From contig BAAIJX010000032.1 of NCBI GenBank assembly GCA_054600435.1, forward strand, positions 1 to 64,000: DNA of 64,000 nucleotides, read 5' to 3'. This document shows, in pieces, positions 58,449-62,339 of the stretch (positions are counted from its first letter, which is position 1; the number at the start of each line of letters is the position of its first letter). This stretch comes from Neophaeotheca triangularis. Taxonomy: Eukaryota. A model generated the notes under the pieces. It made no database searches. It was given only the letters and a program-made list of their open reading frames with translations, and was not told the origin of the DNA. A program made the translations under genes and the position numbers.

Positions 58449-61400
58449 ATGTCTAAAGGCAACTTTAGGTCTAGTAATAGTAATAATGCTATACTAAGCG
58501 TCTAGGGACACTCTACGTTCGGCCTAAACCATCGTGCGGATCTACTAGGCTCCGAATAGCCTCCGGCGAATCGTTTCGCTTAGGAGATAGCTCGCGCCAA
58601 GGCAGCTAGCGTATCCACTATTCGCCCTAACAAACGCAAGTCTAACCATTCTACTGCTAAACTACTAATAGACGAGATTCCTAAGGCCCTCCTCTATACC
58701 GAAGATAGCCGTGCCGACATCTACTATCCCTAGTTCTTGAAGATAGACAAGCGTTAGTGCTTTCCTATAGAGGAAGTCTATAGAGTAGTAGTTAGCAAGC
58801 GAAAGACCGACCCTTACACCTTCTATGCTGGCTAAGGTAAAAACAAGATAACGATAGGCTACAAGTCTTACTCCGGTATCCTTATCTAGTACTAAGATAG
58901 CGAGCACTCTAATTTCTATAGAGATCCGAGAAGAAAATTCGACGTAGACGCCGTAGTAGCTGCTCTAGCGCGTAAGAGGAAAATCGGCCTCGAAGCGCTA
59001 AACCTTAGTGAGACCTTCGTTGACGAGCTAGGAAGGGTTTTCGATTAGGACGAATTGGCCGACATGGACACGGAAGACGCTTAGGCAGCAGATGCCGTAA
59101 AGGCGGAAGATAAAGAAGAGGAAGCTACTCATGCTAAGAAAGAGAAACCGAAGGACACGCGCTAGCTCAATACTACGTTCTACAGTCGCACCTAGATGCC
59201 TTACATTAAGATCAGCTTCTTATAGAAAGAAAGAACTATATAATGCTTCGTCTATTCTTCCAAATTACTAGCTAACGATAAGGAAGTAGGCATTAGCTTC
59301 GTAGTAGCTCGCGACCTAGGTATAGCATATAAGCTACCTAAACACGAGTCGATTATCGCTCTCTTAAAGGAACAAGCCTTATGGCGAACCGATTTAAGCC
59401 TAAAACCATACAAACAGGTCGACGACGACCGTATGGTTTAGACTAGCATTACTACGGAGGAAATTAACTAGCTCATTAACGAAGACCCCACGAAGCTCGA
59501 CGAGAAAGACTAGTTCATCATAGATTTACATAAGGCTAAGTAGCTCACTATCCTACGAGAATGGAAAAAGTAATCGGTAGACGATACCCGCCCCTTTTAG
59601 CGCTATTATAGCGTAATCTCCTATGCTGCGGCTAACTTAGGCAACTTCTAGTGGTATCGCGTTGCTAATGAGTACAAACTACTAAGCGCTGTTAATTATC
59701 CCTTCGACAAAACGCCAATTCCGCGCTAGATAATTGCCGAAGCTTTTATGGACTATATCGGGGATACTCCTCAAGGATACGAGATGGCCAAATGTAAACC
59801 CTTCGATCTTCCCGTCGTAGGTGCTTGGCCTGACACGGAAAGTTTCGCTTTTTCAGCACGTCTTGGTGTAGTAGGGGAACGCCGTGCCTATAAGATGCAA
59901 AGAATTCGTCTAGGTAAGAACAAGCCTAGTGTTACTAGGTATGTCACTGCTAATGACGATGGTAGCTACTTCATCGCTATGTCTTTCGACAAAATGGGAC
60001 CCAAACAAGCATCTCCCTTAATACCTAACCTAGATCGGAGAGTCGACATCTCAATCACATATGAGCGTAAGGCAATCACGCTCCGGGTAATAGTCGCTAG
60101 CGACATACTCTCCTCGGGCGCGCATTTCTACGCTATCGCGCCTCCGCCTAAAGAAAAGGTTGCTAAGATTTAAAGCCCTAGAACTCCGTTCGATGTGAAT
60201 CTTAGCTATCCCCCTGACGTGAAGTCTAGTAATTGTGGTATCAATACTATTAACGTGCTTAGTAAAGGCTACGCACGTAATAGCGGAGTAGACCTAAAAG
60301 AACTTTGCTTCGGCTCTCCTAGGAAGGCTAGTATGGACCCGAATTGGCTCGTATCCCTCCTCGATCATTAAAAGGATCCTATAACTAGACGCTCGCGCCG
60401 TCACTACTTCGAGGAAGAGCTTACTAGACACACATTAAACCCGTCCCAGCTTAGCGCTATTCAGGGTATGATCGCAAGTAGCACTACTACTTACTTACTA
60501 TACGGTCCCCTAGGCATAGGTAAAACTAGGACTCTAGTAGTAGCTATCTATGTCTTTACTAAAGCTAGCTTCCGAGTCATGGTCTGTACTACATCGAATT
60601 CCTCCGTCGACAGAATCGCGCAAGCCTTTAAATATACTAAGAAGGGAGATGTAGGTGATAACTCTTAGGCTCGCTTCACTAGTGCTCTAATTCGGACTAA
60701 GGTCGTGGATCAGGTAGCGCTAGGCCATGAGGAAGGTCAAGCCGTCGTCGAACGCGAACACGTTAGCGCCTTTGATCTAAGATTAGGCTAGGGAGACGAG
60801 GCGGCGTTCAGGTAGCACTACAACATGCTTTTCGAGAACCTCCTCTTTGAGAGCGGTAGTAGTGTAGCCGCCCGCATAGACACCGAAGCTAGTCTCGCGC
60901 GGAAGAAGTTCCGCTAGGTTTAGACATTAGCTAACGGAACGAGTACCGCAAATTCGGGTAAAGAGTTACGTGATGCCTAGGATTATGTTCGCCTATACGA
61001 CCTGATCAAATCTCGGAGCTAGCTAAAGGAGCTCAAGTATAACCGCTAGAAGTTCTACTAGCTCGACGGAAGGTTTACGGCTAATATGTTGAAGTCTCGG
61101 ATCAAAGTCCTGTTTTGTACTAACGCTTCCGCTTTCTACGATACTTTAGTTGACGATCTCGAGCCCGAAATCCTGTTTTAAGACGAGGCCGGCTAAGCGA
61201 GTCCTCCGGACAGCTTCATCCCTATAGCGGCCTTTAAGGAGACTATTCACTACGTTATTATGGTAGGGGATCATTAACAACTCCGTCTAGTGGTGACTTC
61301 GAGGGGTAGAAGCGAAAATTACAAAGCGCTTGACGATTCACTCTTCTAAATCTTGCAATTAGACCCCTATCGGACCTTTCCTCGGCGTATGCTTGATATA

Positions 61401-62339
61401 TAGTATCGCATACATCCTAGGCTATCCCGATTTCCCTCTAAGGCCATTTATAAGGGCGAGCTTCACGACGCTAAACATTTAGCTAAGAGGGATTTAGCGC
61501 TTCAAAAACAAGTTGAAGATGTTCTAGAACTACTAAGAGTGGCAAAGCTTTAGAATAGTAGTCGCTGCCTAGCCCTTAGTGTTGACTCGATGTCTGAAAA
61601 AGTCGGCTCGTCTAGTACCCTTTAGAACGACGACGAAGCCGTTACCATAGTAAGCCTTATCTGTACTCTAGTAGACTCCGGTATCTCGCACTAGCGCATC
61701 TTTATGATCACCCTATATGTAGGCCAGCATACCGCTATTAAAGACTACCTCAAGGCTTAAAGTAAGGAAGATCCGCTTAAGGTCCGGGTCGAGTTAACGT
61801 ACAAATCGCTAGGGTCTAAAGGCGACATTGTCATTATTTCCTTCATATAAGTAGACGACGACACTACTAAGCTCGGCTTTATATCTGAACCCGAGCAAGT
61901 CTATGTCAACATCATAAGGGCTAGGCAGTACCTATTCTTATTCGGCAATTTCAAGCTCTAGTAAGGCACTCTAATAGCGAATAGGAAGGGCGGAAAAGAC
62001 AGGATCTTGTAGGATCCCGCCAAAATATTTCGCCAGCTCATTGAAGATCTTCATACTAGGGACGATGTCATTACGTGGGCTAACTAGTAGACTGTTATAG
62101 AGAACAGGTAACTACTAGCGACACCTACCTATACCGCTAACTTGAGAGCCTTAGTACTATTAGTAAGCTTAAGCTCTTCTAGAGGTTAGCGCGCCGATCG
62201 CATAGTCGACAACCTAAATAAGGTAGCTAAAGTCGATAGTACGGAACCTAAAGGTCGAGGAAATGAGTCTAGAACTAGAAAACGCAGCTAGGAGAAGCAG
62301 GCTTAGGGTAAGAAGCATTAAGGAAGATAAAAGCGTTAA
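58449..62339 (+). pseudogene. UPF1/DNA2/NAM7-like superfamily 1 helicase (AAA_11/AAA_12), intronless, about 1296 codons, RIP-inactivated
   Basis: One frame throughout: LNPSQ (Q motif), YGPLGIGKT (GPPGTGKT), VCTTSNSSVD, DEAG*, VGDH*QLRLVV, LDI*YRIHP, ITLYVGQ, GSKGDIVIISF, LGFI..VYVNIIRAR..LFLFGN. Confidence 0.9.

Follow-up and report, generated by a model that had tools for sequence, protein, structure and literature searches.

The Upf1-like helicases known so far are conserved factors of their hosts, and the AcademH and telomere-linked helicase elements carry a RecQ-like enzyme of superfamily 2 (SF2); to our knowledge, the helicases of eukaryotic DNA transposons are of Pif1 or RecQ type. The Pif1 type is that of Helitrons (accessible part of PMC11417382). 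For Helitrons and Helitron-like elements, the available portions of two sources describe capture of gene fragments, lack of a target-site duplication (TSD) and, in some cases, Ulp1 (C48) domains (PMC11417382; 10.1101/2025.11.13.688278), and the available portion of the second states that DNA2–NAM7 helicases are not linked to Helitron activity (10.1101/2025.11.13.688278). Sources accessible in part likewise report Plavaka elements that may carry extra genes (TET/JBP; PMC12730594), the 11.5-kb, low-copy, two-gene ascomycete element Sly1-1 of Neurospora, with relics damaged by repeat-induced point mutation (RIP) (PMC4592977), and insect TRAS long interspersed nuclear elements (LINEs), whose virus-derived helicase domain is a precedent for an RNA helicase in a transposable element (PMC5563155). 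Here we describe a locus of the fungus Neophaeotheca triangularis (assembly GCA_054600435.1, contig BAAIJX010000032.1, hereafter C32) in which a Upf1-like helicase gene of superfamily 1B (SF1B) at positions 58,449–62,339 has been destroyed by RIP. With our confidence evenly balanced, we read the locus as what RIP has left of a mobile, non-autonomous cassette ~15 kb long, whose core would be this helicase and a second gene, ORF2.

The window analyzed comprises bases 1–64,000 of C32 (254,533 bases), within an assembly of 25.4 Mb and 136 contigs; positions without a contig name refer to the window, and its numbering continues for positions above 64,000 on C32. The helicase pseudogene lies on the plus strand as a single frame of 1,297 codons that starts with an ATG at 58,449 and has its final TAA as codon 1,297, in keeping with the ~1,300 codons of the original prediction, which was made from the sequence of the window. 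It contains 55 stops (38 TAG and 17 TAA) and not one TGA; each of the remaining five frames of the same interval contains 3–27 TGA codons. Pfam, PDB, profile and structure comparisons divide the read-through protein into an N-terminal region with a predicted PH-like fold (~aa 119–399), a helicase core (aa 663–1167) made up of AAA_11 (aa 663–951, E 1.2e-23) and AAA_12 (aa 961–1167, E 2.5e-30), and a tail that is basic, as had been predicted (15 K+R among the last 47 codons). The top PDB matches are Upf1/NAM7 (E 1e-26), and leads of 1B-barrel type in the Atlas were weak, all below 0.9. Of the complete SF1B motif set claimed originally, motifs Q and I–VI are all present in the core, with the qualification that motif V is degenerate (L vs Q in most relatives).

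That RIP, without frameshifts, accounts for the damage had also been proposed, and the comparison with relatives bears this out. A profile of 28 intact relatives, built with the C32 helicase excluded, aligns in one frame only (aa 54–129 and 206–1284), and therefore no frameshift was found by this profile. The stops fall preferentially on columns where relatives keep glutamine (codon 249, Q in 35 of 37; codon 985, Q in 32 of 36) or tryptophan (codon 401, W in 32 of 37; codon 1171, W in 31 of 37); across all stop columns, Q makes up 10.7% vs a background of 4.5%, and W 9.7% vs 1.4%. Damage in the helicase motifs is of the CCA>CTA and ACA/ATG>ATA type, that is, of the CpA>TpA and TpG>TpA kind, and the composite RIP index is positive in all 8 bins of the helicase (mean 1.20) vs 17 of 114 host bins (mean −0.46). 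Because both polarities (C>T and G>A) are seen, the pattern suggests more than one round of RIP, probably at least two. A poly(A) run of ~18 bases stands at 62,744–62,762, ~400 bp past the end of the frame and beside G runs; an origin of the helicase as a retrocopy is not supported, since its paralog on contig C2 (below) likewise reads as one frame.

To place the helicase, we compared it with 1.84 billion representative proteins, which gave 7,942 matches at E≤0.001, and used the best 150 of these. The closest among those 150 has 31% identity (E 2.9e-111), and aligned family members are 20–32% identical to that top match. The N-terminal region is common to 64 of the best 150 proteins (the profile was drawn from 28 of those same proteins, so this count is partly circular). 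Organism names were found on 16 of the 30 clusters looked up, 24 of the 30 being single records. The named genera are Zymoseptoria, Dothistroma, Hortaea, Recurvomyces, Elasticomyces, Vermiconidia, Salinomyces, Polychaeton, Meristemomyces, Diplodia, Macrophomina, Kalmusia, Lophiotrema, Boeremia, Melanomma and Curvularia, all 16 of which we take to be Dothideomycetes. Intact members exist in public genomes (e.g., Zymoseptoria tritici SMR56230 and Dothistroma EME38755); among 56 family members, Walker A is kept in 53, GDxxQ in 51, and an RG-rich C-terminal tail is present in 15. The long N-terminal region, called unrecognized at the outset, indeed has no Pfam match in the 14 family members scanned, but it is not unique to this locus: it characterizes a wide family, of which other fungi have intact members.

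Phylogenetic trees were built on the motif II–VI core, with FastTree from 152 cores (9 short ones dropped) and with IQ-TREE from 46 chosen rows. The C32 helicase falls in the family clade, outside Upf1, Sen1, Dna2, Hcs1, Aquarius and ZNFX1, with a Shimodaira–Hasegawa-like approximate likelihood-ratio (SH-aLRT) support of 87.4 in IQ-TREE and FastTree support of 0.67–0.94 at the nodes around the clade; branches are long, and attraction among them is possible. The same genome holds separate un-RIPed genes for Upf1, Sen1, Dna2, Hcs1, Aquarius and two ZNFX1-like proteins with long open frames (named by eye from their translations). Judging from the trees, then, the C32 helicase is not an ortholog of Upf1, Sen1, Dna2, Hcs1, Aquarius or ZNFX1/Hrr1 (neither tree includes a sequence labelled MOV10 or SDE3), which speaks against its being an ordinary ortholog of a host gene. 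It apparently belongs to a divergent, widespread, fast-evolving and as yet unnamed Dothideomycete SF1B family; the literature searched, within which most subscription journals did not fall, gave no description of this family or of the cassette. Other scans for relatives added little: word-indexed protein searches returned one Sen1-like match and 2 already-known matches, a metagenome scan for the context of intact relatives (80 loci) was swamped by generic helicases matching the core only, and a scan of viral contigs gave no pattern match.

The N-terminal region was modelled from 40 sequences with pLDDT 80.7 and pTM 0.81. Many of the top 50 structural matches to this model are PH-type folds, although none reaches Z 8; the best has Z 6.5 with rmsd 3.6 over 115 aligned residues. 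Neither PDB nor BFVD gave a Foldseek match at E≤0.001, and the Atlas gave no usable match for the region. We therefore treat the modelled PH-type fold as a lead that carries no sign of function. The top structural row is maize RDR2 (Z 6.5), level with other PH-type folds; a link of the N-terminal region to RNA-dependent RNA polymerases (RdRPs) was rejected, as profile comparison with the N-termini of the genome's three RdRPs gave a probability below 1%. Those three RdRP genes have no stops in the matched domain, and RNA silencing is therefore probably functional in this fungus.

The helicase lies within a RIPed unit sharply bounded between two head-to-head housekeeping genes. On the left is an un-RIPed RRM-protein gene (56,047–57,036, minus strand; Pfam RRM_1, E 1.1e-21; RIP index negative), and on the right an un-RIPed STT3 gene beginning at ~C32:72,733 (Pfam E 2e-37). 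The RIP profile places the left edge of the unit at 57,690; it fills the rest of the window to 64,000 and extends to ~C32:72,590, for a total of 14.9 kb with approximate edges. At the left junction is a filler-like, un-RIPed copy of C13:390,354–390,718 (57,303–57,597, plus strand; 96% and 89% identity), whose donor stretch spans the last exon of a YccV/transglutaminase-like gene (Pfam) together with its 3′ region; the copy measures 295 bp, with an internal deletion of ~65 bp relative to C13. A (CCTCA/CTTCA)n microsatellite (57,597–57,680) leads from the filler to the RIPed unit. Although the filler lies directly left of that unit, none of its 41 CpA/TpG sites is mutated; therefore, the RIPed unit has an edge of its own or was RIPed before arrival. 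Host DNA was also copied into the unit itself: 63,574–63,878 (plus strand) is a RIPed copy, at 77% identity, of C111:23,167–23,472, which is the 5′ end of a host gene and comprises ~100 codons, with CpA changed to TpA at 15 of 31 sites vs 12 of 94 other C. The C111 donor gene has no Pfam match; by eye, it has a C-x-H-x-H motif reminiscent of the WRKY/GCM1-type domains derived from Mutator-like elements (MULEs). Toward its right end, the block contains a 240-bp tandem duplication (C32:69,831–70,315), of whose 21 differences between copies 20 are transitions, and an array of 19 units of 40–53 bp (C32:71,389–72,232), within which 19 of the 20 genome-wide motif matches fall. Taken together, the filler, the captured gene fragment, the subterminal array and the head-to-head promoter position look like traits of an insertion. 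A weak, imperfect 17-bp direct repeat (15/17) joins the two RIP edges (57,692–57,708, plus strand, and C32:72,555–72,571); it was found post hoc, and a match this good occurs in 5.2% of 2,885 and 2.1% of 2,000 random window pairs. No Rfam match was obtained.

A sister isolate with the same organism label, from the same study, shares 0.21 of the sequence words and has contigs that reach the left flank to ~57.29 kb and both donor loci. Of two further sequencing runs, one shares hardly any of these words and the other, which may be the source itself, was left out of account, contig depth not being a measure of copy number; no RNA run was among the matching ones listed. No contig of this isolate matches 58,001–63,200 at 80% and none joins across, which we do not count as evidence of absence, though an empty site would look so; at 57,322–57,538, the only contig matched has the C13 alleles. 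Within 52,001–57,300, several places of this isolate are covered by two contigs of about half depth whose alleles differ, a pattern expected of a diploid or mixed sample.

ORF2 occupies C32:67,168–70,932 on the minus strand, convergent with the helicase, as a TGA-free frame of 1,255 codons with 60 TAA/TAG and a supporting coding score. Both genes are real and RIP-damaged. Database searches, including a word-indexed protein search, gave no family assignment for ORF2, a match to PIG-T (E 0.024) was not accepted, and a single-sequence structural model was unusable (pLDDT 32.9). By eye, the motif spacing of its first conserved block resembles that of Ulp1 (C48) proteases, and there is a likeness to resolvases as well; the cysteine of the His-Asp-Cys triad is missing at the expected place, and there is no Pfam or PDB support. 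A homolog at ~322.5–326.5 kb of C2 shares two collinear blocks at 24–28% identity (41.7 bits, where 40 shuffles reached no more than 0.8 and 114 RIPed-DNA windows no more than 7.8) and is extended by fingers that look C2H2-like by eye. ORF2 homologs were sought mainly beside helicases, the genome-wide searches being too weak to recover the known pair of C32 and C2.

Distant homologs of both genes thus stand on the outer arms of a second RIP island, of ~36 kb (C2:322.6–358.5 kb), with the ORF2 homolog at its left end and a helicase paralog (C2:354,663–358,538; 1,292 codons, 64 stops) at its right. The two helicases are 22–28% identical and belong to different subclades (SH-aLRT 90.7 and 98.3), so the pairing of helicase and ORF2, if real, looks old. 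Between the two genes on C2 lie a Plavaka transposase (E 2.1e-33), a nested Gypsy element with 417-bp long terminal repeats, further unassigned ORFs, and an SNF2-like ORF (recognized by eye; no database match). The helicase paralog and a divergently oriented ORF share an inverted duplicated 5′ leader (C2:352,261–352,525 and 354,436–354,648). On C28, short copies of the two outer arms, with fewer mutations, lie at 121.7, 123.7 and 132.3–132.5 kb, no more than 11 kb apart and surrounded by host-like sequence. RIPed Plavaka copies number three in the genome: the one in the C2 island, one at C1:699 kb and one at C41:195 kb. A sister of the inner C2 island lies on C1 (89% along 1.1 kb), the Plavaka copy there being at a distance that fits. 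Its match to C2 stops at C2:351,114 and does not reach the helicase, and the weak genome-wide searches for ORF2 gave none on C1; for these reasons, we favor a Plavaka element nested in an outer C2 cassette of ~11–12 kb. Three family copies were found in the genome, all of them broken. In the third (C2:214.0–216.0 kb), an N-terminal stub is fused in frame to the C-terminal third, ~800 codons having been lost internally, and a short RIPed tandem repeat of ~81 bp lies upstream.

Away from the block, the window contains a chromodomain-bearing RIPed Gypsy at 13,794–20,652 (pol frame 14,763–18,611, minus strand), nested inside a second Gypsy that is older and has suffered more RIP (pol frame 22,170–25,871, plus strand); an 87% sister copy lies at C2:340,083–347,221.

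If the locus is the relic of a cassette, its history may be sketched as follows. The unit would once have been duplicated, because RIP needs a repeat, and would have been RIPed as a whole in at least two rounds, the partner copy being since lost or too diverged to find. Entry at the RRM–STT3 site could have come about during the repair of a DNA break that drew on templated filler; alternatively, the cassette may have been moved in trans by a DNA transposase, for which Plavaka is the nearest candidate. Because Upf1-like helicases are enzymes of this kind and some members have RG-rich tails, the helicase may have been an ATP-driven 5′–3′ translocase on single-stranded RNA, like Upf1, MOV10 or ZNFX1. 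By the same analogy, it would have acted on cassette RNA or silencing complexes, and not as a mobilizing enzyme.

Several observations weigh against this reading. Own-genome DNA searches, which skip common words and give lower bounds on copy number, gave the locus itself and short host fragments and no second copy of the block; the multicopy state originally proposed, with the gene inside a repeat, is therefore not borne out by these searches. The six read-through frames of 63.0–72.9 kb gave no Pfam match, and no transposase, recombinase or Rep was found in the block; the DDE, DUF3435 or HUH gene that had been suggested to lie rightward did not appear. The block ends have no terminal inverted repeat (TIR) even when compared without regard to transitions (longest run 22 vs 20–21 in controls), no clear TSD was seen at the edges, and no convincing 3′ hairpin–CTRR end was found, the hairpins being weak (−3.6 to −5.5 kcal/mol) and the ends undefined. 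On C2, the two homologs stand 28 kb apart and divergent, as against convergent on C32, RIP weakens across the 3′-terminal kb of the helicase, as leakage would also give, and the third copy (C2:215 kb) is surrounded by host sequence free of RIP, apart from a short RIPed patch upstream. In existing annotations, the intact relatives figure as ordinary genes. Finally, copies of ORF2 without an adjoining helicase may exist, since the gene was sought mainly beside helicases. Of the mobile cassette first suggested, what is supported is an inserted-looking block and another cassette-like locus that has the two genes; neither a multicopy state today nor a mobility enzyme to the right is supported.

With its ORF2-like gene, Plavaka transposase, SNF2-like ORF (by eye) and helicase paralog in one 36-kb RIPed stretch, the C2 island could be taken to mean that helicase and ORF2 were passengers on the arms of large Plavaka (CACTA-related) transposons, the C32 block being an internally deleted derivative that has lost the transposase. 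The three RIPed Plavaka copies would agree with this, as would the subterminal tandem array, a CACTA-like trait. Moreover, a TGATG at C32:72,540–72,547, near the right edge, corresponds to the PlavakaB end motif in the accessible part of PMC12730594, where Plavaka ends are given as CATCA..TGATG or TGT..ACA with a 2–3-bp TSD. However, the left RIP edge has neither a matching CATCA end nor a TIR, no homolog of any inner C2 ORF, Plavaka included, was found in the C32 block, and the C1 sister that stops short of the helicase fits a nested Plavaka better, and we judge this origin unlikely. We are equally doubtful of a host accessory pair (for example, antiviral or in RNA silencing) under birth-and-death evolution, in which a segmental duplication led to RIP and the loss of one copy with no dedicated mobility. 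Such a pair would explain why 16 named genera of Dothideomycetes have intact members, why the third copy, amid host genes, decayed through an internal deletion, and why no mobility enzyme was found, and the long branches and RG-rich tails resemble those of defence-type RNA helicases; yet two of the three helicase copies share their RIP block with an ORF2 homolog, and the insertion-like traits of the C32 block do not sit easily with it.

RIP could also have acted on a block that was never duplicated, nucleating at the internal repeats (the 240-bp duplication and the 840-bp array) and spreading to single-copy neighbors, a course suggested by the missing second copy and by RIP-type differences within the repeats themselves. 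The helicase, however, lies 7.5–13 kb from those repeats and is damaged at least as much as the repeat end, and the non-coding filler beside it is untouched. The mean RIP index along the block (helicase 1.20, middle 1.14, repeat-rich end 0.77; host DNA −0.46) shows no gradient from the internal repeats, nor does RIP fade from a neighboring repeat as mere leakage would, so we consider such spreading very unlikely. Left-over cargo of a Starship whose captain was lost, as entertained originally, would be a multi-gene accessory block of this kind with a weak direct repeat at its edges, but no match to DUF3435 or another tyrosine recombinase was obtained right of the helicase, and the 760 bp to its left are without coding signal; we find this hardly credible. 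A bolder version of the cassette reading, which we hold to be rather improbable, would assign the locus to an ancient and as yet undescribed type of mobile element of the Dothideomycetes that combines a Upf1-like helicase with a PH-like N-terminal domain and ORF2. In such a class, block 2 of ORF2 would be an unrecognized mobilizing enzyme, insertion would proceed without TIR or TSD, host fragments would be captured, and a circular intermediate would be formed, of which the convergent C32 and divergent C2 orders could be circular permutations; the numerous divergent "DNA2/NAM7-like" genes of these fungi, most of them known from one record each, would then be its live or domesticated copies.

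On balance, we regard the RIP-killed gene of an apparently unnamed helicase family as real, and a mobile cassette with a so far unplaced partner as probable. If true, a fast-evolving SF1B family that moves within mobile DNA alongside a constant partner gene would represent a novel cargo module or a novel kind of element, and the novelty would sit in a fungal class with many plant pathogens; by analogy, the helicase would be a candidate element-encoded modulator of RNA silencing. Should the intact members prove to be syntenic host genes, the findings would come down to a novel subfamily of helicases and a RIP relic of the ordinary kind.

Among known systems, no described transposable element family fitted the C32 block. 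With the Upf1-like SF1B helicases (Upf1/Nam7, Sen1, Hcs1/IGHMBP2, Dna2, Aquarius and ZNFX1/Hrr1/SAD-3), the C32 family shares the AAA_11 and AAA_12 core, but it appears as a separate clade with an N-terminal region of its own. The AcademH and telomere-linked helicase elements differ in helicase type, that of C32 being SF1B, and the locus is internal in its 254-kb contig. The DUF3435 captain that stands as first gene in a Starship was not found at the block. Helitrons, as far as the sources available describe them, combine their Pif1-type helicase with a Rep domain, whereas the C32 gene is Upf1-like and gave no Rep match; and in the TRAS LINEs, according to the accessible part of PMC5563155, the viral domain is fused to the retrotransposon ORF2, whereas C32 has a stand-alone gene of 1,300 aa and no reverse transcriptase. 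Sly1-1 was rejected as a match, for it has a CMC transposase, TIRs and a TSD, and no helicase is mentioned in the accessible part of PMC4592977. Plavaka/CMCT comes nearest through C2, where its transposase lies between the two homologous genes, whereas no transposase was found in the C32 block and, of Plavaka-type termini, only a TGATG near the right edge; in the accessible part of PMC12730594, the word "helicase" occurs once in the main text, for Helitrons. The block resembles a cargo-carrying, gene-capturing, non-autonomous element, but judged by enzymes it does not qualify as a Helitron, a Starship, an AcademH or a Plavaka element.

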